DNA of 64,000 bases, from positions 1 through 64,000 of the IMG/VR virus record IMGVR_UViG_3300037071_003200; one strand, 5' to 3'. This stretch comes from a virus (taxonomy: Duplodnaviria > Heunggongvirae > Uroviricota > Caudoviricetes). Below the pieces are notes generated by a model, which was given only the letters and a program-made list of their open reading frames with translations, searched no databases and was not told the DNA's origin. The first letter of the stretch is position 1. Each line of letters begins with the position of its first letter. Below, one piece after another: positions 12,668 through 48,593 of this stretch. The position numbers were made by a program, and so were the translations under genes.

Positions 12668-12680
12668 TTACCCTTCGGGC

Positions 12681-12944: not shown

Positions 12945-12947
12945 CCC

Positions 12948-13659: not shown

Positions 13660-15284
13660 AAGAACGCGAGGAGATGCGCCAGGCCTTGCGCCAGGAGATC
13701 GTCGATCGCAAGGTCTCGGATGAGGCCGAGCGTCTCGGCCAGTCGTTGAGTGCCTTCGTCAGGGAGGCGTGGCCGCACGTCAAGAAGCACGAGCAGTACC
13801 GGCACAACTGGCACCTCGACGCGATCAACATTCACCTGGAGGCCGTGAGCGCGGGCGAGATCCATCGCCTGCAGATCTGGGTCCCGCCGGGTTCGATGAA
13901 GTCGCTGTCGGTGTCCGTCTTCTGGCACGCCTGGGAGTGGACGACGCGGCCGTGGCTTCGCTACTGGTCGGCCTCGTACGAGACCCGCCTGGCGGGACGT
14001 CTCTCGGCGATGGCCCGCGACCTCATGCTGGAGCGCTGGTACCAGGAGCGCTGGGGCCCGCTCTTCAAGTTCAACCGCGACGCCGAGCACTACTACGGCA
14101 ACGACCAGGGCGGCACGCGCCTGGCGACGTCACCGGACTCGTCAGGAACCGGCGAGCACGGGCACCGCATCATCATCGACGACCCGATCAACGCAAAGGA
14201 CGCCGACGCCACCTCGAAGTCGACGCTTGACACCGTGAATGGGTGGTTCGATGGCACCGTCCCCTCGCGCGGTCTCGACGGAGTCCTCTCGCCTGACGGC
14301 GATATCATCGACCACGCCCGCGTCATCATCATGCAGCGCCTGCACGAGGACGACCTCGCTGCTCACGCCCTCGAGAACGATCGCGATTACGTCGTCCTGT
14401 GCATCCCGGAGCGCTACTACGCGGGCCATCCGTTCGCTTACCGCGGACAGGGCGGGCACACCTCGACTGAGGACCTCGGCTCGACGTTCGGGCCCGGAGA
14501 TCCGCGCATCGAGGACGAGCTGCTGTGGCCGGATCGCCGTTCCGAGAAGGCATCGGATGCGCTCAAGGCCCAGCTGAAGCATCGCGCCGCGGGTCAGCTC
14601 CAGCAGATGCCCGCGCCGAAGGAAGGCCAGTCGCTCCTGCGCTCGTGGTGGCGCTTCTACGATCCGAACCTCTTCAACGACGTGAAGCGCCGCCCCCGCT
14701 GCTCGATGGTCGTTCAGTCGATCGACTGCCCGCTCAAGGACAAGCAGACGAACGACATGATCTCGATCCAGGCCTGGGGCTGCAAGGGCGCCGATCGCTA
14801 CCTGATCGACATCCGCACGTCGCACATGAGTTACTCGCAGGCCAAGCGCGCCGTCATCGAGCAGGCGAGGTACGTCCGGGCGATGTACCCGAAGGCTCGC
14901 CAGAAGATCCTCATCGAGAACGGCGGCTACGGGCCCGAGCTCATCGTCGACCTGAAGCGCATCCTTACCGGCGTCGAAAAGGTCAGCCCAGCCTCGGAGG
15001 GCGACAAGGAGATCCGCGCCGACTCGGCTGCCGACGACCTGCAGGCGGGCAACGTCTGGTTGCCGGGGATCGGCGCCGGCGCCGATACGACACTGGGCCC
15101 GGCGGGCACCGTCTCCAAGGACATCAACGACTTCATCGAGTCGTGCGCGGTCTTCCCCCACGGCAAGCACGACGACGATGTCGACGCCTGGTCGCAGGCG
15201 ATGAACTGGCTGCGCTCGCAGATCATCATTCCCGGTCGCACTGGCAGTGCCTACAAGGGGATGCGCAAGCGGGTGGCGGCATGA
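13656..15284 (+). CDS. Terminase large subunit
   Basis: GTG at 13656 (GTGA overlap); an alternative ATG lies at 13674. ATPase motifs VPPGSMKS (Walker A-like) and IIIDDP (Walker B). C-terminal RNase H-like nuclease with acidic residues (ILIENGGYG, HGKHDDDVDAW). Confidence 0.85.
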   Translation: MKEREEMRQALRQEIVDRKVSDEAERLGQSLSAFVREAWPHVKKHEQYRHNWHLDAINIHLEAVSAGEIHRLQIWVPPGSMKSLSVSVFWHAWEWTTRPWLRYWSASYETRLAGRLSAMARDLMLERWYQERWGPLFKFNRDAEHYYGNDQGGTRLATSPDSSGTGEHGHRIIIDDPINAKDADATSKSTLDTVNGWFDGTVPSRGLDGVLSPDGDIIDHARVIIMQRLHEDDLAAHALENDRDYVVLCIPERYYAGHPFAYRGQGGHTSTEDLGSTFGPGDPRIEDELLWPDRRSEKASDALKAQLKHRAAGQLQQMPAPKEGQSLLRSWWRFYDPNLFNDVKRRPRCSMVVQSIDCPLKDKQTNDMISIQAWGCKGADRYLIDIRTSHMSYSQAKRAVIEQARYVRAMYPKARQKILIENGGYGPELIVDLKRILTGVEKVSPASEGDKEIRADSAADDLQAGNVWLPGIGAGADTTLGPAGTVSKDINDFIESCAVFPHGKHDDDVDAWSQAMNWLRSQIIIPGRTGSAYKGMRKRVAA

Positions 15285-15484
15285 AGTTCCTCGGCCGCGG
15301 TCTCTCGAAGTCCGATGTGGACGCGCTCGAACGGTCGATCCCGACAAACGATCCGATCGCGCAGCGCAACCCGGAGCGCCCGCTCTACTCCGGCACCCAC
15401 GAGGAGATCGAAGAGGCACTCGTGCCCTGGCTTCGGCGGCGAAGGAGAGCAGCTCGCCAACGCTCTCGTCGGTCGATCTGGTGA
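15281..15484 (+). CDS. Hypothetical small basic protein
   Basis: ATGA overlap with TerL and GTGA overlap with the next gene. 67 aa. Confidence 0.3.
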   Translation: MKFLGRGLSKSDVDALERSIPTNDPIAQRNPERPLYSGTHEEIEEALVPWLRRRRRAARQRSRRSIW

Positions 15485-16167
15485 TCGCGATCCTCGTCCC
15501 GGTCCTCGGTAGACCGCAGAACGCACAGCCACTCGTCGACTCGATTAAGCAGGCGACGACGGTTCCTCACCGCATCCTCTTCCTCTGCACGCCGTTTGAC
15601 GTCGATGAGATCAATGCCGTTCACGAGACCGGCGCCGACATCCACAACGTCCGCTGGGAAGCCGGTCCCGGTGACTGGGCGAAGAAGATCAACCAGGGCT
15701 ATCGCCTGACGGAAGAGCCCTTCATCCTTCTCGCCGCCGATGACCTTCGCTTCCACACTGGCTGGGACACCGAGGTGCTCCGCGTGGCCGAAGAGACGGG
15801 CGCTGGCGTCATCGGCACGAACGATCTCGGTAACGCGACGGTCATGCGCGGGCTCCACTCGACGCACCCCGTCGTTCGTCGCTCCTACGTGGACGAGTAC
15901 GGGACGATCGACGAGCCCGGCAAGGTCCTGCACGAGGGCTACCGCCATCAGTGGGTCGACACCGAGCTCATCGCCACGGCGCAGATGCGTCACCAGTGGG
16001 CGTTCGCGAAGGGATCGCATGTCGAGCACATGCACCCGTTCTGGAAGAAGGGAAAGATGGACGCGACGTACGAGAAGGCACTCTCAACTCCGACCGAGGA
16101 CTTCGCGCACTTCAACCAGCGCAAGCACCTGTGGTCCCGAGCAGCGATGAAAGCGAGGTCAGCATGA
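15481..16167 (+). CDS. GT-A fold glycosyltransferase (family 2-like)
   Basis: GTG at 15481 (there is no ATG in the conserved region). N-terminus VIAILVPVLGRP, a DxD-like motif AADDLRF, and a conserved C-terminal half. Confidence 0.5.
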   Translation: MIAILVPVLGRPQNAQPLVDSIKQATTVPHRILFLCTPFDVDEINAVHETGADIHNVRWEAGPGDWAKKINQGYRLTEEPFILLAADDLRFHTGWDTEVLRVAEETGAGVIGTNDLGNATVMRGLHSTHPVVRRSYVDEYGTIDEPGKVLHEGYRHQWVDTELIATAQMRHQWAFAKGSHVEHMHPFWKKGKMDATYEKALSTPTEDFAHFNQRKHLWSRAAMKARSA

Positions 16168-16493
16168 ACGACGTCAAGATCCACGTGAAGGGGATCGAGG
16201 GATCGAGCCTGGTCGAGAAGGACGGTGTTCCGGCGGCGCTCTTCGGAGCTGTGCTCGAAGTCGACGGCCACATCATCGAGACGGCCTTCAAGATCGAGGT
16301 CACCTTCGAGGAGGGCTTCGTCACGGTCACCCCTCACTTCTACCCCGGCACGTTCACCGTCGTCTCGCACGACAAGGAGTCCTGGCACGAGTTCGCGGCG
16401 AGGATGGAGCTCGAGTACAACCAGAAGAAGACCGCTCGCGATGGACTTGGCCGGGCACTCGCCCGCGTGCTCAATGAGGATGGAGATGGGTGA
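16164..16493 (+). CDS. Hypothetical protein
   Basis: ATG at 16164 (ATGA overlap). 109 aa. Confidence 0.45.
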   Translation: MNDVKIHVKGIEGSSLVEKDGVPAALFGAVLEVDGHIIETAFKIEVTFEEGFVTVTPHFYPGTFTVVSHDKESWHEFAARMELEYNQKKTARDGLGRALARVLNEDGDG

Positions 16494-16716
16494 GCTGATC
16501 GAGTTCCCGCTGCATCGTCGCTTCCAGAACGATCCACCACCCGACTCCGTGCTCGATGTCGTCGCGCAAACGGACGAGTGCAGCGAGTACATCCATGTCT
16601 TCGTCGAGGTGCCTGGTCGCTGCAAGTGCGGCGAGAACGAATGGACGGAAGACCACACTCTGGAGCCCGAGGGCATCGGCATCCACCACGTCTTCGACCC
16701 ACCGCCCGCCTCCTGA
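16486..16716 (+). CDS. Hypothetical Cys/His-containing protein
   Basis: ATG at 16486 (alternative ATG at 16480). ...GRCKCGENEWTEDH... Confidence 0.4.
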   Translation: MGELIEFPLHRRFQNDPPPDSVLDVVAQTDECSEYIHVFVEVPGRCKCGENEWTEDHTLEPEGIGIHHVFDPPPAS

Positions 16717-16734
16717 CTTCTCAGGACTGAGAAG
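16717..16734. terminator. Palindromic hairpin CTTCTCAGGACTGAGAAG immediately after a stop codon
   Basis: 8-bp perfect arms starting 1 nt after the TGA at 16714-16716. There is no U-tract. It shares its arms with palindrome 1378-1395. Confidence 0.3.
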
Positions 16735-16869
16735 ACGGCCCGCTCCGGGGTTGGTTCGCCGGGGCCGCAAAGATTCCGAGGAGTCTTTGCACGCTGGCCA
16801 AGTCAGCTTCTCACCCACACGCCGAGCGGACCGTCCACCTACCAGTCCGGCTCGCGTGAGTGAGTTCTT

Positions 16870-16943
16870 ATGCCCGCCCCGGGACTCGAACCCGGAAACC
16901 TCCGTTTCTGAGACGGAGTGCTATGCCGATTCGCTAGACGGGC
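16870..16943 (-). tRNA. tRNA gene (minus strand); anticodon loop CTCAGAA, giving anticodon CAG but a class-I short variable arm
   Basis: On the reverse complement, acceptor stem GCCCGTC/GGCGGGC (7 bp including a G.U pair), T-arm CCGGG-TTCGAGT-CCCGG perfect, anticodon stem TCCGT/ACGGA with an extra closing pair. The D-arm is poorly paired. Discriminator A. Confidence 0.55.
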
Positions 16944-16944
16944 A

Positions 16945-17014
16945 ATGGGGCCCCGAGGAATCGAACCTCGTCCTGTCGGGTTACAGCCGAGCATGCGCCA
17001 CTACACCAGGACCC
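16945..17014 (-). tRNA. tRNA gene (minus strand); anticodon loop CTGTAAC, giving anticodon GTA (Tyr-type) with a short variable arm
   Basis: On the reverse complement, acceptor stem GGGGTCC/GGGCCCC (7 bp), D-arm GTGT-AGTGGCGC-ATGC, T-arm CGAGG-TTCGATT-CCTCG perfect, discriminator A. Lies 1 nt from the neighbouring tRNA. Confidence 0.55.
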
Positions 17015-17216
17015 CGTGGGGGCTAGGGAAGGCGCAGATACAACCGGCGAACCACGGCGCGAGCGTATCGAGGAATGGGCGCCGGCGCAACCGTGGAAGC
17101 CTCCCGAAGGAGTGTCCCGTCCGCAGTTAGCGTCGGCGCCCGCATGCAGTCTAATCCGACCCGAGGGTGTATATTTACCTCTGTCCCGTTCGTAATCGAA
17201 CCGATGGAGGTTTGTG

Positions 17217-18185
17217 ATGGGTTGGATCGTTCTCACGGTGCTCGCCGTGATCCTGTTCTGGGTTGGAATCGGTATCTGGGTCTACGCACGCAAGCGCGAT
17301 GCGGTTCTCGAGGCCGAGGGCCGCACATCTTCAGATCTCATGCCATCCGGGCTCGGGCTCTACGCCGCGATCGGGGTCGGCATCTGTTGGGTCTTCATGT
17401 CCTTCTTCTTCATGGTCCACACGGTGGGCCAGCGGGAGGTGGCGATCGTCTACAACTTCTCCGGCACGATCGCGGGGAAGAAGGATCCCGGAGTCGTGAC
17501 CACGTTCCCCTGGCAGCACGTTCGCAAGGAGAACGTCGGCATCCAGCACACCGAGTACGACTTTGGCGCGAACAACTCCGCTGTCTCCAAGGACCAGCAG
17601 AAGATCTTCGCGAAGCTGGCGGTCAACTACCAGATCGACTCCGTGAACGTCGTCGACCTGTACGAGCGGGTCGGGCCCTCGTGGAAGGACATCATCATCG
17701 AGGCCAGGGTGCCGCAGGTGTTCAAGGAAGTCACTGCGACGTTCCCGACGCCGAAGATCACCGAGGAGCGGGCCGAGCTGCGCGAGCAGACTCGCACGCG
17801 CCTCATCGCCGAGCTCAACCAGTACGACATCAAGGTGGTCGACGTCTTCATCACGAACCTCGGCTTCTCCGATCAGTACTCGCAGGCGATCGAAGAGAAG
17901 CAGCAGCAGGTTCAGGATGCGCAGCGTGCCGAGGCCAAGGTCAAGCAGGTCGAGGCCGAAGCTCGCCAGAAGGTCGCGCAGGCCGAGGGTGAGGCGAAGT
18001 CGAACGTCGCTCGCGCTCGTGGTGACGCTTCTGCCAACCGTCTGCGTCAGCGCTCGCTGACCCCACGCCTGATCCAGTGGGAGGCAATCCAGAAGTTGAA
18101 CCCCAATGTCCAGATCATCGTCTGCCCGCCGCAGTCGGTCTGTATCCCGAACTCGGCTGTCGTGCCGAACCCAGGAGGCAACTGA
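17217..18185 (+). CDS. SPFH / band-7 (stomatin-prohibitin-HflK/C-like) membrane protein
   Basis: ATG at 17217 with a GGAGG 7 nt upstream. N-terminal transmembrane helix, then an SPFH-like core (EVAIVYNFSG...VNYQIDSVNVVDLYE...) and a long Ala/Glu/Gln-rich coiled coil (QQQVQDAQRAEAKVKQVEAEARQKVAQAEGEAK). Confidence 0.75.
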   Translation: MGWIVLTVLAVILFWVGIGIWVYARKRDAVLEAEGRTSSDLMPSGLGLYAAIGVGICWVFMSFFFMVHTVGQREVAIVYNFSGTIAGKKDPGVVTTFPWQHVRKENVGIQHTEYDFGANNSAVSKDQQKIFAKLAVNYQIDSVNVVDLYERVGPSWKDIIIEARVPQVFKEVTATFPTPKITEERAELREQTRTRLIAELNQYDIKVVDVFITNLGFSDQYSQAIEEKQQQVQDAQRAEAKVKQVEAEARQKVAQAEGEAKSNVARARGDASANRLRQRSLTPRLIQWEAIQKLNPNVQIIVCPPQSVCIPNSAVVPNPGGN

Positions 18186-18283
18186 TGATCCTTCCGACGA
18201 ACGTCGATGCTCTGCTCAGGGACATGCAGAAGCTCGTGCAGACCGCCACTCGTCTGCTCACAAAGCTGGAGGAGAAGCTCTGA
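18185..18283 (+). CDS. Small peptide (32 aa)
   Basis: TGATG overlap with the SPFH gene. MILPTNVDALLRDMQKLVQTATRLLTKLEEKL. Confidence 0.3.
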   Translation: MILPTNVDALLRDMQKLVQTATRLLTKLEEKL

Positions 18284-18615
18284 TGCTCACGAAGCTCCGC
18301 GCCAGCCTGGACGATCCGTGGACTAAGGGCCTCGTCATCGCGGCAGTCGTCCTCGCCATCCTCGCCATCGTCCTCCTCCTCGCCGGGTGCGGGGAGGAGG
18401 GGGCGGAGGGAGCCAGCGGCGGTTGCACCGGAACGGTCACGAAGACGTACACGGAGTACAAGGCCGGGGTCGGGATTCAGTCCGGCAGTGTCACCATCCC
18501 GACCGGAAACACGCGCTACTACATCGCCGTCAAGCGCGACGACGGCACCTACTGCTCACAGCGACTCGACAAGAGCGAATGGCTCGCCGTCACGGAAGGA
18601 GACACCTATGGGTAA
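18283..18615 (+). CDS. Putative lipoprotein
   Basis: Signal peptide ending in lipobox LLLAGCG (Cys at about position 35). 110 aa. Confidence 0.5.
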   Translation: MLTKLRASLDDPWTKGLVIAAVVLAILAIVLLLAGCGEEGAEGASGGCTGTVTKTYTEYKAGVGIQSGSVTIPTGNTRYYIAVKRDDGTYCSQRLDKSEWLAVTEGDTYG

Positions 18616-18754
18616 GAGATTCCTGAGAGCGCTCGCGGAGTTCTTCAACCCGCGTGACTGGGTCCCCACGTTCCCGATCGTGCGCAAGCACGACCCGGAC
18701 GCTCAGGGCTACCAGACGTTCGGGGAAGCGCTGCGCGGGTTCAAGAAGGACTGA
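18608..18754 (+). CDS. Small hypothetical protein (48 aa)
   Basis: ATG at 18608 overlapping the end of the lipoprotein gene. Confidence 0.3.
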   Translation: MGKRFLRALAEFFNPRDWVPTFPIVRKHDPDAQGYQTFGEALRGFKKD

Positions 18755-18756
18755 CC

Positions 18757-18990
18757 ATGTGGCCCTTCAGGAAGAAGAAGAGGCGCTCAAGCGACCCACC
18801 CGCCTCCGGGATCGCCGGTGACGTCGCTGACGCGATCATCATCAACGAGATCTTCGCTCCTGGCTCGACCGCGGCTGCGCTCGGTGCTGTCGCGGATGCG
18901 GCTGGAGCAGTGGGCGGCGCGGCCGTCGATGTGGCGGGTGCCGTCGCCGAAGTCGCTGGCGAAGCTCTGGACGGAGGGTTCGATGGCTAG
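18757..18990 (+). CDS. Ala/Gly-rich small protein
   Basis: 77-aa ORF. The basic N-terminus MWPFRKKKRRS is followed by an Ala/Gly/Val-rich region. Confidence 0.35.
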   Translation: MWPFRKKKRRSSDPPASGIAGDVADAIIINEIFAPGSTAAALGAVADAAGAVGGAAVDVAGAVAEVAGEALDGGFDG

Positions 18991-19114
18991 GGTCATGGAG
19001 CTCTTCGTGATCGTCAACGCGGCCTGCGGCATCGCGGCCTTCGTGATCGCGAAGGGGATGATCAAGCGAGCGAAGCGCAAGATCACCGGAGAGGACGAGC
19101 GATCCGGCCCTTGA
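18983..19114 (+). CDS. Small membrane protein (43 aa)
   Basis: MARVMELFVIVNAACGIAAFVIAKGMIKRAKRK is one transmembrane helix with a basic tail. Confidence 0.3.
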   Translation: MARVMELFVIVNAACGIAAFVIAKGMIKRAKRKITGEDERSGP

Positions 19115-19674
19115 CCGAAGCTCTCCTTCTCGCCCCGCACGGCGACGACGAGACCCTCTTCGCAGCGTTCACGTGCATGCGCTACGGCAAGCGCATGCAC
19201 GTGATCGTCTGCACCCAGGACGCCGATCCGGCGATCCGCGGCGTTCGCTCGATGGAGACGAAGAGAGCCATCAGTCTCCTCGGTTGCACCCATCACGAGT
19301 GGCCCATGTCGGCCGACGAGCCCAACTGGGATTCCGCGAAGGAATGGCTGGGAGCGTGGGCCTCCGACAAGCTGTTCGCGACGAGAATCGAGAAGGTGTT
19401 CGCGCCGGCGATCGAAGTCGAGGGCCACGAGCAGCACAATGCTGTCGGACTCCTAGCCCAAGATGTCTTCGGTGATCGCGTCACGCACTACCTCACCTAT
19501 GGCCCTCGTGGAGAGCGCTCCCAGCACGGCGTGGAGGTCGCACCCCCGACGGCGCACGAGATCGTTCGCAAGCTACGAGCTCTGTCCTGTTACGAGTCGC
19601 AGATCACGAACCCTTGCTCCATGCCCTGGTTCTTCGATCTGCTTGACATGAGAGAGTGGTGGGCGGCGGAATGA
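19111..19674 (+). CDS. PIG-L / LmbE-family N-acetylglucosaminyl deacetylase
   Basis: N-terminal zinc motif LLLAPHGDDETLF (the H-x-D-D-E signature) and a later HEQHNAVG motif. 187 aa, the typical size. Confidence 0.7.
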   Translation: MTEALLLAPHGDDETLFAAFTCMRYGKRMHVIVCTQDADPAIRGVRSMETKRAISLLGCTHHEWPMSADEPNWDSAKEWLGAWASDKLFATRIEKVFAPAIEVEGHEQHNAVGLLAQDVFGDRVTHYLTYGPRGERSQHGVEVAPPTAHEIVRKLRALSCYESQITNPCSMPWFFDLLDMREWWAAE

Positions 19675-20072
19675 GCGGTCGCGAGCTGGTTGTCACCCGT
19701 CACGCGGTCGCGGCCTACTCTCGACGGCGCAACGACGCACGCTCACTGCGCCTGCTCGCCGCTGTCAACTGGAACCCAGACATCGTGCGCAGGTCGTACG
19801 GCGCGGAGACCGCCGACAGGCTCATCATCTTCTACAACGAGCTCGAGCGCGAGATCGCCGAATGTGTCCAGTACGCGCTGGACAACGGACTCACCGAGAG
19901 GCGCAAGCCTCCAGGCTTCGTTCTCTACAGGCGCAAGCGCGATGCCTTGCCCGATGGGCAGAGGTTCGTTCGCTGTGAAGAGGACTCGCCGTACGGCTTC
20001 ATCGTTCAGCGCGACCCCGGCGGGAAGGACGTTGTCCTGACGACCATCTCTCGCGTGGGGGTGCGGAAGTGA
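19671..20072 (+). CDS. Hypothetical protein
   Basis: 133-aa ORF, ATGA/GTGA-coupled. Confidence 0.45.
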   Translation: MSGRELVVTRHAVAAYSRRRNDARSLRLLAAVNWNPDIVRRSYGAETADRLIIFYNELEREIAECVQYALDNGLTERRKPPGFVLYRRKRDALPDGQRFVRCEEDSPYGFIVQRDPGGKDVVLTTISRVGVRK

Positions 20073-20596
20073 GTCTCCGCGACCTGGAGCGCGAGTCGAT
20101 CCGCAGCTTCGTCGCGCAGGCGGCATCCGAGGGCTACCTGCAGAGCGCTGTCCTCGATTACGGCTGCGGCAAGCAGCCCTACCGTGAGATCGTGGAGGCG
20201 CAGCTCCCGCTGGGCGGGGTGTATCAGCCCTTCGATCAGCAGCGCTTTCCGGGGAACGTCTCCGGCGAGAACATCGGTGAGGGTGATCCACTCATCATGG
20301 AGGGGTGGGGCTCGATCCTCTGCACGCAGATCCTTCAGTTTGTCCCTGACGTGGAGGGTCTGCTCGGCAGGTTCTGGCACGTCCTGCGCGAGGGCGGCCA
20401 TCTCGTGATGACGTACGTGACCAATTGGGCCGAGGTTGAGCCGGGTGATCTTCATCGCCACACGAGAGCGGGCATGGAGCGACTGCTGATCGAGTCCGGA
20501 TTCAAGATCATCCAGCACACACCTCGGGAGATCGCCGCGGTCACGCTCGACGGCGAGAACCTGTACGCCGGGTACGGGGTGGTGGCCCGCGCCTGA
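20069..20596 (+). CDS. Class I SAM-dependent methyltransferase
   Basis: Motif I VLDYGCGKQPY and the post-II region VLREGGHLVM. 175 aa. Confidence 0.7.
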   Translation: MSLRDLERESIRSFVAQAASEGYLQSAVLDYGCGKQPYREIVEAQLPLGGVYQPFDQQRFPGNVSGENIGEGDPLIMEGWGSILCTQILQFVPDVEGLLGRFWHVLREGGHLVMTYVTNWAEVEPGDLHRHTRAGMERLLIESGFKIIQHTPREIAAVTLDGENLYAGYGVVARA

Positions 20597-21015
20597 TGTG
20601 CTTCACCTGCACCCTCGAAGAGGTCACCGGGATCGACTCCCAGGACTTGGAGGATGGTTGGACGCCGGACATCGTCGCTGCCGTCCAGTGGCCTGCGGTC
20701 ACCGACGACATGAAGCTCCTTGCTCGCCTGCGCTGGGTGCTCTACGAATGCACGAGCGCCTGCACGGGCGGGCCGATGCACATCTTCACCGACGACTACA
20801 ACATCGAGGACTCCAACCTCGACTTCTGCGAGAAGGACACCCTCAACGACACGCACTGGGGCGTGACCGACTACCCAGACTGGCCGCTGGTGAAGGCGCT
20901 CACGCTCCGGATGATCGAGCTCGCGCGGCCGATGAACAACGCCGAGCGAGTCGTCTCACTGTCTCTGTCCTGGGGTGAGCTACAGCTCGACACGAACGGA
21001 AAGGTGGTCCGATGA
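20596..21015 (+). CDS. Hypothetical protein
   Basis: 139-aa ORF. Confidence 0.45.
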   Translation: MCFTCTLEEVTGIDSQDLEDGWTPDIVAAVQWPAVTDDMKLLARLRWVLYECTSACTGGPMHIFTDDYNIEDSNLDFCEKDTLNDTHWGVTDYPDWPLVKALTLRMIELARPMNNAERVVSLSLSWGELQLDTNGKVVR

Positions 21016-21191
21016 GGAACTTCATCGTCTTGCGGAAGATCGACTCCAGTGGAGTCTGGCAGGAGGTCACAGCGCTGCGGGCGTGGTCTCGGAAGGGGGC
21101 GCTGCGTCAGGTCGAGGAGGCGGGCACGCAGTTCGGCCAGTACGTCGCCGTCCCGCTCAGGCAGTGGCGTGTCATGGACATACCGCTGTGA
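21012..21191 (+). CDS. Hypothetical small protein (59 aa)
   Basis: ATGA overlap at the start and GTGA overlap at the end. Confidence 0.35.
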   Translation: MRNFIVLRKIDSSGVWQEVTALRAWSRKGALRQVEEAGTQFGQYVAVPLRQWRVMDIPL

Positions 21192-21685
21192 GCAAGATCG
21201 TCATCGACGTCGGGTGCGCACGCTACGGCGGCGACTACTCCATCGAGCGGTTGATCGAGAAGTTCGAGCCGGACGTGCTCTATGGCTTCGATCCATCGTG
21301 GGAGCCCGAGATGTACGACTTCGCCTCCAACCCCACTCCGGTGATTGTGTCAACCGAAGTGGCGTGGACACGGCGTGGACTCGTGCCCTTCATGGTGGAC
21401 GGGCTGAACGGCCAGGTGGGCGACGCCGACTTCTGGCCGCGCCTTCGCTGCATTGATCTCGCTCGCTTCATTCGCAATCTTCCGGATGGGGACGAGATCA
21501 TCCTCAAGATGGACTGCGAGGGCTCCGAGTACGACCTGCTGGAGCACCTGATGAACAAGGGCGTCGATGAGCGCCTCTCTCTCGCATGGATCGAGTGGCA
21601 CCCGCGCGGAGTGCCCGATCCTGTTGAGCGCCGTGCGTCGATCGAGCGCCGGCTGCGCTGCCAAGTCGATGAATGGCTCTGGTGA
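21188..21685 (+). CDS. FkbM-family methyltransferase
   Basis: GTG at 21188. VIDVGCARYGG (GxG SAM-binding) and LKMDCEGSEYDLLE (the FkbM MDxEGxE motif). Paralog of 47953..48507. Confidence 0.65.
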   Translation: MSKIVIDVGCARYGGDYSIERLIEKFEPDVLYGFDPSWEPEMYDFASNPTPVIVSTEVAWTRRGLVPFMVDGLNGQVGDADFWPRLRCIDLARFIRNLPDGDEIILKMDCEGSEYDLLEHLMNKGVDERLSLAWIEWHPRGVPDPVERRASIERRLRCQVDEWLW

Positions 21686-21776
21686 GGAGTTCAATTGGCC
21701 GCTTCTGATCTCCCTGATCCTGTGCGTCCTGTTCTGGGCGATGGTGGTGGGCCTCCTGCTGTGGTGGGTTCTGTGA
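21669..21776 (+). CDS. Small membrane peptide (35 aa)
   Basis: MNGSGEEFNWPLLISLILCVLFWAMVVGLLLWWVL. Overlaps the previous gene out of frame. Confidence 0.25.
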   Translation: MNGSGEEFNWPLLISLILCVLFWAMVVGLLLWWVL

Positions 21777-22429
21777 ACGTCACGGCGATCATCGTCACCC
21801 GCGGAGACGTCGACCTCACTCCGATCCTCGATTCGCTGCCCGTCGAGTGGGAGCGCATCGTCTGGGACAACGGCTATCACGGCTGGCCCCACGTCAATCA
21901 CTACAAGGACGGGAACGACTGGCGCCCGGACGGCGTGCCGGGTGAGGTGCACGATCTCTCGGTGTACGGACGCTACGCCGCCATCCAGTATGCGAGCAAC
22001 GACCTGATTTACGTCCAGGACGACGACTGCGTGGTGAGCGACCCGGGCCGCGTTATGTGGCACTGGCTGAATCAGCCGAACGCCCAGGCGGTCGTCTGCA
22101 ACATGCCGCCGCAGTTCCGCTACGGCTTCTACGAGGAGCACGCGCTGGTCGGCTTCGGCGCTGCCTTCCACCGAGACGCGCCCGAGGAGGCGTTCAGTAC
22201 CTTCTGGGAGGCGGTGACGCTCGGGCCTCTCGGGCCAACGGGCACGGACTTCTTCAACCGCACCTGCGACGTCGTCTTCACTGCGCTCACTCCTCGCGTC
22301 CTCGTCGACGTGCCCTACGAGGACCTCTCTTGGGCGACGGCCGACGATCGGATGTACCGCCAGCCCCAGCACCTGGGCGAGCGCTCGAAGATGCTCGAGC
22401 TGGCGTTCCGGGCGAAGGACGCGACGTGA
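21773..22429 (+). CDS. GT-A fold glycosyltransferase
   Basis: GTG start (GTGA overlap). N-terminal AIIVTRGD and DxD motif VQDDDCVV. 218 aa. Confidence 0.5.
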   Translation: MNVTAIIVTRGDVDLTPILDSLPVEWERIVWDNGYHGWPHVNHYKDGNDWRPDGVPGEVHDLSVYGRYAAIQYASNDLIYVQDDDCVVSDPGRVMWHWLNQPNAQAVVCNMPPQFRYGFYEEHALVGFGAAFHRDAPEEAFSTFWEAVTLGPLGPTGTDFFNRTCDVVFTALTPRVLVDVPYEDLSWATADDRMYRQPQHLGERSKMLELAFRAKDAT

Positions 22430-23019
22430 GCAGCAACCTGCGCCTCTACAACTCGGACGACGTTTGCAAGGACGGCTACCCGTTCGCCTGGCACAACGAG
22501 CACTGGCACGACGATCGTCGCTACCCGCCGATCAAGGACATGATCAGGGAGCTGAACGGACATCGCTGCGAACGCTGCGGGCATCCGTACAAGAAGGGCA
22601 ATCCGGCGATCTCGGCCGGTGGTCAGTGGTCACCGTGCGACGCGGAATGCACTCACGGTGGACCTGGGCGCACCATCGAAGTCTTGGCAAAGAGTCCGCC
22701 GATCTACCGGCCCAGTGACGACATTCCAATCATCGAAGCTCAGTGGCGCATCCTTACCGTCCATCACCTGAACGGCATCAAGTGGGACTGCCGTTGGTGG
22801 AACCTCGCCGCTCTCTGCCAGCGCTGTCACCTGACGGTCCAGGGCCGCGTTGTCATGGAGCGCGTCTGGGTCTGGGAGCACACCGAGTGGTTCAAGCCGC
22901 ACGCCGCTGGCTGGTACGCCTTCGACTATCTCGGCGAAGAGCTCACCCGCGAGGAGACGATGGAGCGAATGGAAGAACTGCTCGCACTGGAACGCGGCGG
23001 AGAGATCGGACCCTGCTGA
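22426..23019 (+). CDS. HNH endonuclease
   Basis: GTG start (GTGA overlap). CERCGHPYKKGN...LTVHHLNGIKWDCRWWNLAALCQRCH carries Cys4 plus His-Asn-His motifs. Confidence 0.6.
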   Translation: MSSNLRLYNSDDVCKDGYPFAWHNEHWHDDRRYPPIKDMIRELNGHRCERCGHPYKKGNPAISAGGQWSPCDAECTHGGPGRTIEVLAKSPPIYRPSDDIPIIEAQWRILTVHHLNGIKWDCRWWNLAALCQRCHLTVQGRVVMERVWVWEHTEWFKPHAAGWYAFDYLGEELTREETMERMEELLALERGGEIGPC

Positions 23020-23210
23020 TGGAGCGCTCACGCGATGCTGCTCGACGCAAGAGGGAACAAGCGTTTCGCAAGCGCGAGAAGGAGCGCCTGGCGCGTGAGG
23101 CTCGTGAGGCTCGTTGCGCCGTCTGCGGTTTGGAGGTAACGATTGAGGATCGCTGCAATGACGGTCTCTACCTGCACCGGGAGTGCGCCTATGCCGAGTC
23201 CTCGCGATAA
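23019..23210 (+). CDS. Small Cys-containing protein
   Basis: TGATG overlap. CAVCGL...HREC. Confidence 0.35.
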   Translation: MERSRDAARRKREQAFRKREKERLAREAREARCAVCGLEVTIEDRCNDGLYLHRECAYAESSR

Positions 23211-23406
23211 GACCCGCGAAGAGATCCTCTACGAGGAGATGTTCGGACGCCCGCCGTCCCGACTCCCCGATGATCACCCTGATGCGTGGCAGTGGGAGTA
23301 CCGCGGGGGCAAGAAGGAGTACGAGGAGCTGCAGCTGAAGCTCGGTCTCGTGAAGGACGACGGCGGGCCCGTCAAGATCGACGGCCAGGAGGAGCTGTTC
23401 GGATGA
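23191..23406 (+). CDS. Hypothetical small protein
   Basis: ATG at 23191 in the frame of ORF 23143..23406. 71 aa. Confidence 0.3.
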   Translation: MPSPRDKTREEILYEEMFGRPPSRLPDDHPDAWQWEYRGGKKEYEELQLKLGLVKDDGGPVKIDGQEELFG

Positions 23407-24110
23407 GCCTGGACATCCTCTACCTCTCGCGCAACCGACGCGAGTTCACCGAGTTCACGTTCTCGAAGCTCGTCGAGAACACGAACTGGGGTCTCGCCGA
23501 TCGTCTGATTGTCTACGACGACTCGTCGACTGACGGTGCCCTCGAGGAAATCCGATCTCGGATTGAAGACGTGCCCGTGCAGTACGAGATCCGCGAGCAC
23601 GACATGGGCTCGCCGGTCGCCGTGATGAACGACTACATCGCGTCAACCGAGTCCGAGCGCTTCGCGAAGATCGACAACGACCTCGTCGTACCGCCAGCGT
23701 GGCTCGATCACATGGTCGACGTGATGAACGAAGACGAGAATCTCGTCCTGCTGGGGATGGAGAGCCCGTTCATGGGGCCGCCACATCTCGACTGGGATGG
23801 CACCTATACATGGACGCCCTGGAAGCACATCGGCGGCGTGGGGCTCATGCGCACCGACTTCTTCCGGCAGACCGGGCCGATGGACGTCGACGGCTACCAC
23901 GGCTTCACCGGACACCAGTGGAAGTACGGTCCTCGGCGCGGCTGGATCACTCCTGACCTCATGGTCTGCCTGCTCGATCGGGCTCCGGTTGAACCCTGGC
24001 AATCGCTGTCGGAGGAGTACGCGAAGCGCAACTGGCAGCGGCGCTGGAGGACGATGCCGGTCGAGTACTCCTGCTACTGGGACTGGTTCACCGAACAGGA
24101 GGCCGCATGA
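23403..24110 (+). CDS. Family-2 (GT-A) glycosyltransferase
   Basis: ILYLSRNRREFTEFT...IVYDDSSTDG (the classic GT2 DDgStD motif) and a DxD-like KIDND. Confidence 0.7.
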   Translation: MSLDILYLSRNRREFTEFTFSKLVENTNWGLADRLIVYDDSSTDGALEEIRSRIEDVPVQYEIREHDMGSPVAVMNDYIASTESERFAKIDNDLVVPPAWLDHMVDVMNEDENLVLLGMESPFMGPPHLDWDGTYTWTPWKHIGGVGLMRTDFFRQTGPMDVDGYHGFTGHQWKYGPRRGWITPDLMVCLLDRAPVEPWQSLSEEYAKRNWQRRWRTMPVEYSCYWDWFTEQEAA

Positions 24111-24502: not shown

Positions 24503-25245
24503 GACTCGTGGCTTCGATGATCGTGAAGGACGAGATGAAGCGCTACCTCCCGCTGGCGGTAGACCACCTCCTCACCTACGTCGACGAGATCCGCGTCCTC
24601 GATGACAGCTCAACCGACGGCACCTACGAGTACCTCGAAGCGAAGGACGGGGTGAACGTCATGCGCAACCCTGGGCCCGCCTTCTTCGAGCACGAGGGGA
24701 AGGCCCGGCAGTACCTCTACAAGTGGACGCTGCAGGGACTCCCGGACTACGTCCTGGCGATCGACGCCGACGAGTTCGTGACCGATCCGACGTACCTGCG
24801 TGCCGCGATGGAGCAGGGCGCACCCGTCTACACGCTCTCCCTCGTCGAGGCCTGGGCGGTGTCGAACCGTGGCATCGACATCCGGGTCGACGGTCTCTGG
24901 GGACCGCGCAAGATCCCGATCCTCTACCAGATCATCCGGCAATCTCGAAACTGGCGGATCGCGCAGAAGCAGCTCGCCTGCGGGCGCGAGCCGGAGCAGG
25001 TCATCCAACGAGCTCGTCGCGCAACTGCCTCGGGCTCCTCGGTCATCCACTTCGGATGGGCGAACGAGGCCGAGCGCACCGTGCGGGCACAGCGCTACTA
25101 CGACCACGACCAGGGCAAGTTCCATCAGAACCGTCACCTGCAGTCGATCCTCTGGGCAGACCGGCGGGTTCGGATGCGGCGCCTTCCCTGGCCGCCGAGC
25201 TTCGCCGAGCTCGAGGCCGGGCTCACGGCCGCTTCTCAGTCCTGA
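24499..25245 (+). CDS. Family-2 (GT-A) glycosyltransferase
   Basis: GTG start. MIVKDE...IRVLDDSSTDGT and DxD motif AIDADEF. Confidence 0.7.
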   Translation: MRLVASMIVKDEMKRYLPLAVDHLLTYVDEIRVLDDSSTDGTYEYLEAKDGVNVMRNPGPAFFEHEGKARQYLYKWTLQGLPDYVLAIDADEFVTDPTYLRAAMEQGAPVYTLSLVEAWAVSNRGIDIRVDGLWGPRKIPILYQIIRQSRNWRIAQKQLACGREPEQVIQRARRATASGSSVIHFGWANEAERTVRAQRYYDHDQGKFHQNRHLQSILWADRRVRMRRLPWPPSFAELEAGLTAASQS

Positions 25246-25287
25246 GAAGATCTACTCCGGCCGATCGCGGCGGTAGCCTCCGGCCAA

Positions 25288-25485
25288 GTGCCGAAGCCAA
25301 AGCCGGACAAGAAGGACGTTGCGGTGGTGTACGTCTACAACAGCCCGATGGGTTTTCGATACACCTGTCGCAACGACGAGGGCACGGTGATCTGGGACTC
25401 GATGACGACGTTTCGCTCGCGCTTCGATGCTCGCAAGGCGATCACGAAGGCTTGGCCCGATGCGAGAGTGACGTTCGAGGCGTGA
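25288..25485 (+). CDS. Hypothetical small protein
   Basis: 65-aa ORF. Confidence 0.4.
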   Translation: MPKPKPDKKDVAVVYVYNSPMGFRYTCRNDEGTVIWDSMTTFRSRFDARKAITKAWPDARVTFEA

Positions 25486-25820
25486 GCTCCCCCGGCTGGT
25501 ACGGACTCTTGCTCGTCGGTGTCGCTGCGTGGCGCACGTTCCAGCTGCTCGCCCACGACGACATCCTTGACCGTCCTCGCCGCTGGGTTCTCCGGATGGG
25601 CTCGGAGTGGCAGAAGCAGGGCGATCCGGTGCCCGACGACTACCGCCTGAAGCCAGCGCTCTTCCTCGTTTGCCCGTACTGCGCGGGCTTCTGGATTGGC
25701 CTGGGGTGGTGGATCGCGTGGCAGATCTCACCCTTCTGGACGCAGGTATTCGCCGTTCCTTTCGTGATCAACGCGATCGTCGTCGGTGGATCGAAGATCC
25801 TGGGCAAGGACGACGAATAA
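25482..25820 (+). CDS. Membrane protein (DUF1360-like, CPYCAGFW motif)
   Basis: GTGA overlap. Two or three transmembrane segments and the motif LVCPYCAGFWIGLGWW. Confidence 0.5.
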   Translation: MSSPGWYGLLLVGVAAWRTFQLLAHDDILDRPRRWVLRMGSEWQKQGDPVPDDYRLKPALFLVCPYCAGFWIGLGWWIAWQISPFWTQVFAVPFVINAIVVGGSKILGKDDE

Positions 25821-25855
25821 GGATGTCGTCCGCAGCCTCCCCCTAAGATTCGCTC

Positions 25856-26083
25856 GTGCCATGCGGGTGCGGTAAGAACGTCCCCCAACTCTCGGCTGAA
25901 GAAGTGGCCGCTCGTGCGGAGCGTCAGCAGATCGCCAGAGAGCAGCAGCTTGCGATGCGTGCGGAGCGCATCGCGGCGCGGGAGAAGAAGCGTGAGGCAT
26001 CGGAGCAGCTCCGGCGCGAACGCCGTGAACGTCTGCTCCAGGTTCGTGCGGAGCGTGCAGCCGTGAACAGGCAGCAGCCCTAG
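25856..26083 (+). CDS. Hypothetical basic coiled-coil protein
   Basis: 75-aa ORF rich in R/E/A. Confidence 0.4.
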   Translation: MPCGCGKNVPQLSAEEVAARAERQQIAREQQLAMRAERIAAREKKREASEQLRRERRERLLQVRAERAAVNRQQP

Positions 26084-46158: not shown

Positions 46159-46160
46159 TG

Positions 46161-47227: not shown

Positions 47228-47248
47228 CAGTTCAGGTATGCTGCCCAA

Positions 47249-48507: not shown

Positions 48508-48593
48508 ACCTCACGGCCTTCAGTCAAGCGCACGGCCACGAGAAGTACGACTGGTACTTCCCCTTCTTCGACGCGTGCCTGGACTGGTACGAC

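Follow-up and report, generated by a model that had tools for sequence, protein, structure and literature searches.

A candidate virion-glycosylation locus with changing gene content separating terminase and portal genes in an uncultivated phage family

In the 64,000-nucleotide stretch of phage DNA analysed here (the window), the stop codon of the large terminase gene (TerL) at 15284 and the start of the portal ORF at 26083 are 10.8 kb apart (Table 1). As previously proposed, this distance is unusually long; Corndog has a single gene at the same junction, and Wizardvirus has about 2 kb. Gene calling with a codon model on the window, together with independent JGI calls on the identical contig, places about 26 genes in the interval, on the plus strand throughout, and the coordinates and gene content given by the first-pass annotation were borne out. 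Its claim of translational coupling holds for most junctions, approximately 16 of 26 overlapping by 1–17 nt, but fails at three real intergenic gaps of 500 nt (16716-17214), 171 nt (23019-23191), and 83 nt (25820-25904). TerL, 547 aa in the JGI call, is 29–34% identical to annotated terminases, and the portal protein, whose ORF has alternative starts at 26140 and 26146, shares 26–29% identity with portal proteins annotated in phages of Gordonia and Mycobacterium (both by tblastn). The 67-aa ORF that follows TerL is conserved in the relatives L168 (80%) and L174 (71%).

Table 1. Features of the TerL–portal interval, its flanks and functionally related genes in the window
Feature	Position	Strand	Evidence and remarks
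Large terminase (TerL)	13641..15284; longest ORF from 13497	+	Pfam Terminase_6C, tblastn; left backbone flank
67-aa ORF	15281..15484	+	4-nt overlap with TerL stop; both gene-call sets
GT1, GT-A fold glycosyltransferase	15481..16167	+	AF2, Foldseek, phrog_14945; left anchor of slot
Two small hypothetical genes	16164-16493, 16480-16716	+	Both gene-call sets; subgroup-specific
18-bp palindrome CTTCTCAGGACTGAGAAG, copy 1	16717..16734	.	Left edge of variable cargo
Conserved non-coding element	16735-16868 and 17075-17214, within 16735..17214	+	Upstream of SPFH gene; alignment with L168, L174
tRNA-Leu(CAG)	16870-16944	-	ARAGORN, Rfam 45.2 bits; short variable loop
tRNA-Tyr(GTA)	16946-17015	-	ARAGORN, Rfam 49.2 bits; short variable loop
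SPFH/Band-7 membrane protein, two N-terminal TM segments	17214..18185	+	Pfam, PHROG, TM scan
Lipoprotein, then three small ORFs (one with TM segment)	18283..19114	+	Gene calls, TM scan; weak DUF7489 match
LmbE/PIG-L family de-N-acetylase, PHGDDE motif	19111..19674	+	Pfam
Hypothetical protein, 133 aa	19671..20072	+	Gene calls; no family match
Class I SAM-dependent methyltransferase, LDYGCG motif I	20069..20596	+	Pfam below cutoff, motif, orthologs
Two hypothetical genes	20596-21015, 21012-21191	+	Both gene-call sets; no family matches
FkbM-like methyltransferase	21188..21685	+	Sub-cutoff profiles, invariant motif, paralog at 47953-48507
GT2, GT-A fold glycosyltransferase, EXTL2-like	21761..22429; alternative starts 21695, 21773	+	AF2, Foldseek
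HNH endonuclease	22426..23019	+	phrog_1571 E = 2e-8; Pfam HNH_3 E = 1.8e-4
Small hypothetical gene	23191..23406	+	Both gene-call sets; after 171-nt gap
GT3, GT2-family GT-A glycosyltransferase	23403..24110	+	Pfam GT2, E = 9.6e-10
Hypothetical protein, 131 aa	24107..24502	+	Both gene-call sets
GT4, GT2-family GT-A glycosyltransferase	24508..25245; alternative starts 24499, 24517	+	Pfam Glyco_tranf_2_4, E = 1.1e-11
18-bp palindrome CTTCTCAGGACTGAGAAG, copy 2	25232..25249	.	Right edge of variable cargo
Small ORF	25288-25485	+	Right end of interval, before DUF1360 gene
DUF1360 membrane protein	25482/25509-25820	+	Pfam 23 bits vs cutoff 21; phrog_781; right anchor by portal
Portal protein	26083..27984	+	tblastn to annotated portals; right backbone flank
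GT5, Corndog gp38/Che8 gp110 family glycosyltransferase	29571..30146	+	blastp, hhalign, PHROG; between protease and major capsid protein
Collagen-like protein, 1572 aa	34983..39701	+	Pfam Collagen E = 1.6e-119; candidate glycosylation target
Locus 2, GT-A-like pair	44643-45362, 46158-46892	+	Locus spans 44643..51369
Locus 2, methyltransferases	45559-46158, 48594-49079, 50788-51369	+	
Locus 2, FkbM paralog	47953-48507	+	BLASTP
Locus 2, GT-B	49354-50481	+	

Glycan-handling genes predominate in the interval and its interior is variable, as had been suggested, and nearly all earlier domain calls could be verified, among them all four GT-A glycosyltransferases, of which Pfam supports two and AlphaFold models with Foldseek the other two. 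GT1, modelled at a pLDDT of 94.9 and matching a glycosyltransferase PHROG, is structurally closest to RmlT, SpsA, and TarP and has 1036 homologs in metagenomes. GT2 (pLDDT 87.9) best matches the HexNAc-transferase EXTL2 (TM 0.62–0.66), and its DDD motif is invariant (802 homologs). GT3 and GT4 exceed their Pfam cutoffs (39 vs 23 bits and 45.5 vs 27.5 bits, respectively) and are related to each other, with an hhalign probability of 92–95%. The LmbE/PIG-L de-N-acetylase lies just above its cutoff (29.9 vs 28.2 bits) and is kept in nine relatives. Calls for the two methyltransferases are weaker: the SAM-dependent enzyme matches Methyltransf_23 below cutoff (E = 2.6e-4) and contains the GCG motif I; it is conserved in L014, L016, and L174-176, and orthologs have recorded Pfam matches, that of the 63% identical L174 ortholog being stronger; the FkbM-like enzyme is below cutoff in both Pfam (E = 0.004) and TIGR01444 of NCBIfam (E = 3.7e-4), with its hallmark K-x-D-x-E-G-x-E invariant.

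The other genes of the interval are less widely shared. The SPFH gene (Pfam E = 1.9e-22; phrog_200 E = 3.7e-48) has counterparts only in L168 and L174 among the relatives, the HNH gene only in L168 according to the presence matrix, and both tRNAs are missing from L168 and every other relative compared. The lipoprotein (18283-18615) has a hydrophobic helix followed by an LAGC lipobox; the two small genes downstream of GT1 have no family matches in Pfam or PHROG. The 18-bp palindrome, for which 0.02 copies are expected by chance, also follows GT1 in L174, and L168 and L174 both have its right-edge copy at the equivalent position. Upstream of the SPFH gene, a conserved non-coding element is split by an insertion of about 200 nt bearing the tRNAs, and contains a hairpin (17076-17145) with a fold z-score of -3.4 and four compensatory pairs. 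With this promoter-like region and conserved hairpin at 16.7–17.2 kb, and with the two palindromes bracketing it, the cargo may form its own transcription unit.

Some 20 distinct related loci from metagenomes share with the window the order TerL, GT1, variable slot (1–9.6 kb), DUF1360, and portal, on contigs of 88–137 kb with TerL proteins 38–94% identical to that of the window. GT1 adjoins TerL or sits slightly downstream in all of them, and the DUF1360 gene, homologous to Clawz gp40, is likewise kept upstream of the portal gene in relatives. Gordonia phage Clawz itself has its DUF1360 gene upstream of the portal gene but no glycosyltransferase gene in the approximately 9 kb upstream of the portal. 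Since all the relatives recovered keep this frame, even at a TerL identity as low as 38%, GT1 and the DUF1360 gene belong to the lineage backbone. A six-gene cassette (LmbE, SAM and FkbM methyltransferases, and three glycosyltransferases) is common to nine distinct relatives. Eight relatives have slots non-homologous to that of the window; of their 40 ORFs, 17 match the GT2 family, six NAD epimerase/dehydratase, three methyltransferases, one UDP-glucose dehydrogenase, and one an Asn-synthase-type amidotransferase. In the nearest relative (TerL 93% identical), slot genes are 46–85% identical and some are missing, a pattern of mosaic replacement. Set against the refuting case named by the first-pass annotation, the same spacing with unrelated genes, the result is mixed: similar spacing is combined with homologous content in some relatives, while the content of others is non-homologous but equivalent in its glycan function. 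This favours a conserved slot with variable content over an insertion.

Glycan-related genes continue outside the slot. GT5, which lies beyond the island delimited by the first-pass annotation yet is part of the same system, matches Corndog gp38 (blastp E = 4e-5; hhalign 96.4%; phrog_854 E = 3e-18) and has 134 matches in Mycobacterium phages; it is conserved in L003, L009, L169-L171, and L173, and both GT1 and GT5 are present in every lineage member seen. Corndog gp38 and the cluster-F glycosyltransferases are essential for capsid glycosylation according to a statement that PMC12363180 takes from Freeman 2023. Corndog, too, carries its one methyltransferase and three glycosyltransferases within the head operon, in the interval from the portal to the capsid gene (PMC11600133). 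The TM scan predicted no TM segment in any glycosyltransferase, methyltransferase, or the deacetylase, and no Wzx/Wzy/GtrA-like polytopic membrane protein in either the interval or locus 2; this fits enzymes that modify a soluble acceptor directly in the cytoplasm. The collagen-like protein contains 324 Gly-X-Y triplets, 191 of them with Thr at Y, and similar GXT proteins are found in L169 and L171. In the GPT repeats of BclA3, Thr is O-GlcNAcylated by the GT-A enzyme SgtA (PMC7157674); however, Thr is the commonest Y residue of bacterial collagen-like repeats generally (PMC8968730), so that GXT richness is weak evidence. A tail-tube-like protein has a VT(P/S)xS C-terminal tail that is kept in relatives, and in mycobacteriophages the capsid and tail-tube subunits carry glycans at their C-terminal ends according to PMC12619734, which refers to Freeman 2023.

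The interval had been read as an inserted accessory island, part of a glycosylation cassette that was duplicated and dispersed. That a recent moron cluster entered between TerL and portal, with its cassette later copied to locus 2, is very unlikely and, for the interval as a whole, largely refuted. It would account for a spacing longer than in isolated phages, for the subgroup-specific SPFH, HNH, and tRNA genes, and for the FkbM pair, whose paralogy was confirmed (36.7% identity over 169 aa, E = 1.3e-25). However, the island genes are indistinguishable in GC, GC3, and codon score from those elsewhere in the genome (GC3 0.819 vs 0.826, p = 0.55), a search for direct repeats flanking the interval found none, and the GT1–DUF1360 frame and the six-gene core are shared as described above. 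Dispersal fares no better: paralogs in locus 2 of the island glycosyltransferases, also claimed, were detectable for none of the four by BLASTP or hhalign, and the sole paralogous pair, FkbM, shows a divergence (39% identity) matching that of orthologs from phages with TerL identities of 38–53%, which indicates an ancient split or separate acquisition of the two copies rather than a dispersed cassette. The interval is no recent insertion but a lineage-wide locus with changing contents. It could instead be a permissive plasticity region for any cargo, in which glycan genes were gathered by chance or hitch-hiking and function independently of the head genes. To this we assign a low probability: non-glycan cargo does occur (besides the SPFH, HNH, and tRNA genes, L011 has an M23 endolysin-like gene and one relative a TROVE/Ro60 gene), but the GT2 and sugar-nucleotide enzymes in the non-homologous slots are far above random cargo, and GT1, the invariant anchor, is a glycosyltransferase too.

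Two other targets of the enzymes have to be considered. Modification of a glycan in the host envelope (teichoic acid, arabinogalactan-like polymer, capsule, or O-antigen) during infection, directed against superinfection or against re-adsorption of progeny to lysed cells, like that by prophage TarP and the Gtr systems, seems unlikely. Among the best structural matches of GT1 are two glycosyltransferases of teichoic acid, RmlT and the prophage-encoded TarP, but at 8–16% identity the matches reflect a generic GT-A fold. Although the SPFH, lipoprotein, and DUF1360 membrane proteins and a glycosyltransferase content that would follow host surface diversity suit an envelope target, no flippase, polymerase, or polyprenyl-phosphate glycosyltransferase was found, all the glycosyltransferases are predicted to be soluble, a scan of the larger ORFs revealed no integrase, and the locus is set among virion genes and conserved along with them. 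Glycosylation of the phage DNA to give hypermodified bases that evade restriction by the host, a strategy known from T-even phages and from the systems of Pyle et al. (2024), is quite improbable. Diverse virus-encoded glycosyltransferases hypermodify DNA, according to work cited in PMC12619734; the strongly variable glycosyltransferase content would suit an arms race with restriction systems, and the replication arm lies outside the window, which covers all but about 37 kb of the approximately 101-kb genome. However, no thymidylate-synthase-like hydroxymethylase or base-modification gene was recognised among the scanned window ORFs of at least 150 aa, the locus is within the head operon and away from nucleotide metabolism, and the family of GT5 is tied to virion protein glycosylation. 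The pairing of a de-N-acetylase with several O-methyltransferases, typical for the tailoring of glycans, also counts against DNA as the target.

With somewhat better than even confidence, we regard the interval as a lineage-wide hypervariable virion-glycosylation locus in the head-morphogenesis operon of an uncultivated phage family; from genomic context and homology, we infer virion proteins as the acceptor, which of them are modified, the order of reactions, and the biological pay-off. Counting against this reading are the non-glycan genes in the slot (SPFH, HNH, and the endolysin-like gene of L011) and the signs that the cargo may be transcribed as a unit of its own. Late in infection, soluble cytoplasmic enzymes of the slot, acting jointly with GT5 and those of locus 2, would use host nucleotide sugars to build O-linked glycans straight onto virion proteins, either ahead of assembly or in the course of it. 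The first sugar would be a HexNAc, given the resemblance of GT2 to EXTL2, and would then be de-N-acetylated by the LmbE enzyme; the other glycosyltransferases would extend the glycan and O-methylation would cap it. Likely acceptors would be the Thr residues in the Gly-X-Thr triplets of the collagen-like fibre, the Ser/Thr tail at the C-terminus of the tail-tube-like protein, or both. Exchange of slot cargo among relatives would diversify the surface glycans.

The window is a tailed-phage segment of 64% GC, transcribed nearly entirely from the plus strand, in which 10.8 kb lie between the gene for the large terminase (TerL) and the portal open reading frame. The identical stretch is found on a JGI metagenome contig (sample 3300037070), the same proteins are also encoded on a contig of 100,931 bp, and the independent JGI gene calls agree with those made here. 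About 26 plus-strand genes and two tRNAs, the only genes on the minus strand, occupy the interval, and this gap and its gene content proved to be as the first-pass annotation had claimed, with accurate coordinates and domain calls. Its further claim, that everything except the tRNAs is translationally coupled to the structural operon, held in part: about 16 of the 26 junctions overlap by 1-17 nt, but three real gaps, of 500, 171 and 83 nt, also occur, and the interval probably does not extend the TerL operon as one translationally coupled unit.

Features of the TerL-portal interval, its flanks and the second enzyme group (locus 2, 44643-51369), with the evidence for each
Feature	Position	Strand	Evidence and remarks
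TerL	13497/13641-15284	+	Pfam Terminase_6C; 29-34% identity to annotated terminases
GT1 (GT-A)	15481-16167		AF2 pLDDT 94.9; Foldseek matches RmlT, SpsA, TarP
Two tRNAs	16870-17015	minus	Rfam 45 and 49 bits
SPFH protein	17214-18185		Pfam E = 1.9e-22; phrog_200
Lipoprotein	18283-18615		LAGC lipobox
LmbE/PIG-L deacetylase	19111-19674		Pfam PF02585 just over cutoff (29.9 bits vs 28.2)
FkbM-like methyltransferase	21188-21685		Pfam 17.7 bits vs cutoff 22.7; TIGR01444 21 bits vs 37.7
GT2 (GT-A)	21761-22429		AF2 pLDDT 87.9; best match HexNAc-transferase EXTL2; invariant DDD
HNH endonuclease	22426-23019		PHROG E = 2e-8
GT3 (GT-A)	23403-24110		Pfam GT2, above cutoff
GT4 (GT-A)	24508-25245		Pfam Glyco_tranf_2_4, above cutoff
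DUF1360 membrane protein	25482-25820		Above Pfam cutoff
Portal ORF	26083-27984	+	26-29% identity to annotated actinobacteriophage portals
Maturation protease	27986-29533		PHROG; after portal
GT5	29571-30146		Between protease and major capsid gene; outside the interval delimited by the first-pass annotation
Capsid protein, 603 aa	31478-33289		Downstream of protease
Tail-tube-like protein	33439-34044		phrog_792
Collagen-like protein	34983-39701		1572 aa
Locus 2 GT-A-like pair	44643-45362, 46158-46892		
Locus 2 FkbM paralog	47953-48507		TIGR01444 21.4 bits vs cutoff 37.7; no Pfam match at E ≤ 0.01
Locus 2 GT-B	49354-50481		

The same annotation took the interval for an inserted accessory island, a view that does not stand, since the region resembles the genome in composition, lacks flanking repeats and is present in all relatives. 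Its GC content is 0.634 against 0.640 in the rest of the genome (Mann-Whitney p = 0.33), its GC3 is 0.819 against 0.826 (Mann-Whitney p = 0.55), and the codon score is also no different; no direct repeats or att-like sites were found at its flanks. Thus neither mark of a genomic island, compositional deviation or absence from close relatives with an empty site or repeats, is seen, and the tRNA pair is alone in behaving like a discrete insertion/deletion. About 20 distinct related loci, in which TerL is 38-94% identical, came from scans whose queries were TerL, a TerL alignment, the capsid protein and GT1 homologs; the portal as a single query in the viral-contig scan found none. All relatives share the order TerL, GT1, a slot of 0.96-9.6 kb, the DUF1360 protein and the portal, with at most a few small genes between TerL and GT1, and those on contigs of 88-137 kb have slots of 8-10 kb, like that of the window. 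The DUF1360 gene belongs to the backbone and not to the cargo, because in Gordonia phage Clawz, too, it is the gene directly before the portal, and the ~9 kb upstream of the portal of that phage contain no glycosyltransferase (GT) genes. The region should therefore be described, in place of an inserted island, as a glycosylation slot that is ancestral and hypervariable, with GT1 and the DUF1360 gene as its frame. The lineage has about 1000 metagenomic homologs; no isolated or cultured member occurs among 50,697 phage genomes, against which a megablast of the island gave a sole match of 52 nt in TerL. The host labels of three metagenome-assembled relatives (L003, L004 and L005: Vicinamibacterales, Gemmatimonadetes and Glaciihabitans) are mutually inconsistent, look like binning artefacts and were left unused.

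A matrix of gene presence and identity across the relatives resolves the interval into layers. The anchors GT1 and DUF1360 are found everywhere, and the core cassette (LmbE, the SAM methyltransferase, FkbM, GT2, GT3 and GT4) is shared fully or partly by nine distinct relatives. The SPFH protein and small membrane proteins are confined to the two closest relatives and the HNH gene to one, and the tRNA pair is found in none. Even in the nearest relative (L168, TerL 93% identical) the slot genes are only 46%-85% identical and several are missing, which indicates mosaic replacement. In eight relatives the slot genes are non-homologous to those of the window, and the 40 larger ORFs of these slots were scanned against Pfam: 17 match GT2, six match NAD-dependent epimerase/dehydratase families and three are methyltransferases, with one UDP-glucose dehydrogenase and one asparagine-synthase-type amidotransferase. 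The function of the slot is thus conserved where its genes are not, because the non-homologous ORFs still match glycan enzymes. One relative (L011/L090, 13834-15312) carries in the slot, just before the DUF1360 gene, an endolysin-like protein with M23-peptidase and PG-binding domains, a homolog with 56% identity to that encoded at 61397-62851 in the window; the slot of one relative encodes a TROVE/Ro60-vWA protein.

The slot also has non-coding features. An 18-bp palindrome, CTTCTCAG-NN-CTGAGAAG, lies at 16717-16734 and 25232-25249, and a variant, CTTCTCAATATTGAGAAG, at 1378-1395, giving three copies in the window where 0.02 would be expected. In L174, another related locus, copies stand at the end of GT1 (10671-10688) and just before the DUF1360 gene (18779-18796), so that two palindromes bracket the variable cargo in both; L168 has the right-hand copy only (20014-20031), and the more distant relatives have none. 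Several of the copies overlap with a stop codon, and the role of the palindrome could be that of an operator, a site of RNA processing, or a boundary of recombination or of a cassette. Upstream of the SPFH gene is a non-coding element of ~290 nt (16735-16868 and 17075-17214), kept in L168 and L174, part of which exceeds the coding sequence beside it in conservation: over its last ~140 nt the identity to L168 is ~93%, whereas the adjacent SPFH protein is just 63% identical. It includes a hairpin at 17076-17145 (fold z = -3.4), with four compensatory pairs in only three sequences, followed on the 3' side by a conserved stretch containing TATATT/TATCTT and then by a ribosome-binding site. The element (16735-17214) has no Rfam match, and a scan of the island for sigma-70 promoters and intrinsic terminators, uninformative at 64% GC, gave none above shuffles; the element may be a terminator with an internal promoter, or a structured leader.

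In the window alone this element is split by an insertion of ~200 nt, absent from the nearest relative, which carries the two tRNAs. Their anticodons are those of Leu(CAG) and Tyr(GTA), and at 75 and 70 nt they have short variable loops; in bacteria, long variable arms are the norm for tRNA-Leu and tRNA-Tyr. That they are plus-strand tRNAs assigned to the wrong strand is ruled out by minus-strand Rfam scores of 45-49 bits and a canonical T-loop. Elsewhere, L168 has at 4785-4855, between tRNA-Ile and tRNA-Met, a tRNA with the amber-reading anticodon CTA (ARAGORN 'Pyl'), and the matching place in the window (11610-11868) holds tRNA-Ile and tRNA-Met only. Upstream of the packaging genes, near these plus-strand tRNAs, an RtcB-type RNA ligase is encoded (3368-4684, Pfam E = 5e-64), which may act in tRNA repair.

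GT1 and GT2 have no significant Pfam match. Their folds were settled by AF2 and Foldseek, because sequence-profile searches of the PDB did not settle them, yielding SpsA at E = 0.06 for GT1 and nothing except chance LRR matches for GT2. With models built on alignments of metagenomic homologs, the top PDB matches of both were all GT-A enzymes. GT-A enzymes are built on a single Rossmann-like alpha/beta/alpha domain and bind metal and nucleotide sugar through an acidic DxD-type motif that follows the fourth beta-strand. A motif of this type is present in all four island GTs, invariant as A86-D-D88 in GT1 and D87-D88-D89 in GT2, and read as 'KIDNDL' in GT3 and 'AIDADEF' in GT4. GT5 belongs to the family of Che8 gp110 and Corndog gp38: it is homologous to gp38 (blastp 4e-5; hhalign 96.4%, E = 1e-9), matches phrog_854 at E = 3e-18 and finds 134 Mycobacterium phage GTs by tblastn. 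Comparison of the island GTs with the locus 2 proteins and Corndog gp36-37 by BLASTP and hhalign left all pairs below 3% probability, the exceptions in this comparison being GT3 with GT4 and GT5 with gp38. The proposed paralogy of the GT-A genes with locus 2 is accordingly rejected, as neither BLASTP nor profile-profile comparison found any; locus 2 has GTs of its own, a GT-A-like pair and a GT-B enzyme, together with three more methyltransferases.

The SAM and FkbM methyltransferases of the island score below curated cutoffs; both have diagnostic motifs, and the homologs in relatives score higher. For FkbM, neither PF05050 nor TIGR01444 is matched above cutoff, the matches span only the C-terminal third of the model, and a profile search of the PDB was empty. 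In seven family members SAM motif I (VxDxGC/A) is invariant at V5, D7, G9 and C10, and a K-x-D-x-E-G-x-E block, the hallmark of FkbM, is invariant at K107, D109, E111, G112 and E114; on these motifs the family is classed as FkbM-like, at a distance. The island gene and its counterpart in locus 2 are indeed paralogous, as had been noted (36.7% identity, E = 1.3e-25). Duplication and dispersal of a cassette finds no support in the pair, because the two copies have diverged as much as distant orthologs. Of the other products, the deacetylase has the N-terminal metal-binding motif, here LLLAPHGDDETLFA, in the form (A/P)H(P/x)DDE that is the hallmark of LmbE/PIG-L de-N-acetylases, and the SPFH/Band-7 protein combines an SPFH domain with an N-terminal anchor, two TM segments being predicted.

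The best-supported model is that virion proteins are O-glycosylated directly in the cytoplasm, at a late stage of infection. The GT and methyltransferase genes stand amid structural genes, the cassette separating TerL from the portal and GT5 the protease from the capsid gene, and the GTs, methyltransferases and deacetylase of the window are all predicted to be soluble. No flippase, polymerase or lipid-carrier GT was found in either locus by TM scan and Pfam. Under this model host UDP- or dTDP-sugars would serve as donors, because the slot of the window lacks genes for nucleotide-sugar synthesis; in some relatives the slot encodes epimerases and dehydrogenases as well. A HexNAc would be put on the virion protein first and then de-N-acetylated, the glycan would be extended, and O-methylation would be the last tailoring step. 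One candidate acceptor is the collagen-like protein, which has Thr at the Y position in 191 of its 324 Gly-X-Y triplets, and two relatives also encode similar GXT proteins after the capsid gene. As a caveat, collagen-like repeats of bacteria often have Thr at this position in general (PMC8968730). The tail-tube-like protein is another candidate, with a short C-terminal Ser/Thr tail that is kept in relatives (VTPGS, VTPSS, VTPASH, VTSTS).

The two genes after the capsid gene, for the tail-tube-like protein and a phrog_779 protein (33439-34909), stand in the window in the reverse of the order seen in three relatives (L169 at 11904-13321, L170 and L171). The 1.3 kb between GT5 and the capsid gene (30147-31477), of strongly negative GC skew, contain a minus-strand ORF of 225 aa (30629-31306, phrog_4652) and ~480 nt without a convincing gene, and represent an insertion inside the head operon, because L169, L171 and L173 have only ~120-160 nt there. 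Directly after the collagen-like protein come a 564-aa protein with two polysaccharide-lyase domains (39712-41406, Pfam E = 1e-37) and then two paralogs of 30% identity (41413-42798 and 43936-44646) on either side of a 364-aa protein; the products of 39712-41406 and 41413-44646 are probably fibre or depolymerase modules beside locus 2.

The same enzymes might instead modify the host envelope, as the structural matches of GT1 to RmlT and TarP, which are teichoic-acid GTs, could suggest. These matches, at 8-16% identity, reflect the generic GT-A fold, however, and the export machinery is missing, so that this explanation is unlikely. Glycosylation of DNA by these enzymes is improbable, as the genomic context speaks against it and no hydroxymethylase-like gene occurs among the ORFs of at least 150 aa scanned in the 64-kb window of the ~101-kb genome. 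That the slot is a random cargo site is also very hard to credit, given the strong enrichment of glycan enzymes within it and the fact that the anchor GT1 is itself a GT. Returning to virion glycosylation, it is tentatively suggested, as one possibility, that the slot is a phage 'glycan-serotype' locus, by which a widespread uncultivated lineage of soil or sediment phages of ~100 kb would coat its virions, especially the giant Gly-X-Thr collagen-like fibre, with self-made glycans diversified by cassette swaps between GT1 and DUF1360.

Virion glycosylation is described for the mycobacteriophages Che8 (cluster F), Corndog (cluster O) and Myrna (cluster C) (Freeman et al. 2023, Cell Host Microbe 31:1216, through PMC12363180, PMC11600133 and PMC12619734). 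Capsid glycosylation requires the GTs Che8 gp110 and Corndog gp38 (PMC12363180, citing Freeman et al. 2023), cluster O has an O-methyltransferase and three GTs acting on capsid and tail-tube proteins (PMC11600133), and capsid and tail-tube subunits bear the glycans at their C-termini (PMC12619734, citing Freeman 2023). The window likewise encodes soluble GT-A GTs with an adjacent methyltransferase. As in Corndog, a cassette lies inside the head-morphogenesis operon, and GT5 is homologous to gp38 and to the cluster-F GT, although Corndog gp36-38 have no detectable similarity to the four island GTs. The position differs, being TerL to portal in the window, portal to protease/capsid in Corndog and the genome end in cluster F, and so does the size, with at least eight GT and six methyltransferase genes in two loci plus GT5, compared with 2-4 genes in mycobacteriophages. 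The window further differs in its LmbE de-N-acetylase, and its large uncultivated lineage in the hypervariable content between conserved anchors. The locus may be a form of phage-encoded virion glycosylation that is larger, differently placed, equipped with a de-N-acetylase and variable across the lineage.

Counterparts outside phages can also be drawn. In the exosporium systems of Bacillus and Clostridioides (BclA, BclA3/SgtA) a long Gly-X-Thr collagen-like protein is likewise encoded near GT-A GTs. BclA glycans contain methylated sugars. SgtA, a GT-A enzyme, transfers O-GlcNAc onto Thr of the GPT repeats in BclA3 (PMC7157674). This system is bacterial and spore-associated, not viral, and by analogy with it we infer only that the phage GTs may act on the phage collagen-like protein. 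Bacterial O-antigen, capsule and flagellin-glycosylation islands similarly have, between conserved flanks, a set of GTs, sugar-nucleotide enzymes and methyltransferases that varies among close relatives, whereas the window has no Wzx/Wzy/ABC export or lipid-carrier initiation genes and its locus lies inside a viral structural operon. Giant viruses have autonomous glycosylation machinery, producing Mimivirus fibril glycans and chlorovirus capsid glycans (review PMC9614988). They are alike by description, with host-independent clusters of GT and sugar enzymes decorating virion proteins or fibrils and collagen-like proteins in the same genomes, but these viruses infect eukaryotes, belong to a different realm and have far larger gene sets.

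In the present lineage, with about 1000 metagenomic homologs, the head-assembly operon has as fixed components the signature GT family and a far more extensive tailoring set. Phage virion glycosylation has reportedly been demonstrated only in a few mycobacteriophages, and Freeman et al. (2023) are reported to have found few indications of it among phages at large. If the virions of the present lineage are not glycosylated, the slot would be an ordinary variable region. If they are, glycosylation of their own virions would be widespread among phages of environmental bacteria, for which evasion of antibodies cannot be the selective force, and adsorption, stability or evasion of recognition by hosts or predators would come into question. 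The layout of conserved anchors and variable cargo would then offer a comparative system for the diversification of phage surface glycans, and the cytoplasmic protein O-glycosyltransferases, the de-N-acetylase and the sugar O-methyltransferases would be parts for glyco-engineering. Should the slot be a glycan-serotype locus, it would correspond, among viruses, to the O-antigen loci of bacteria, and virion glycosylation would be common, ancient and under diversifying selection well beyond the mycobacteriophages.
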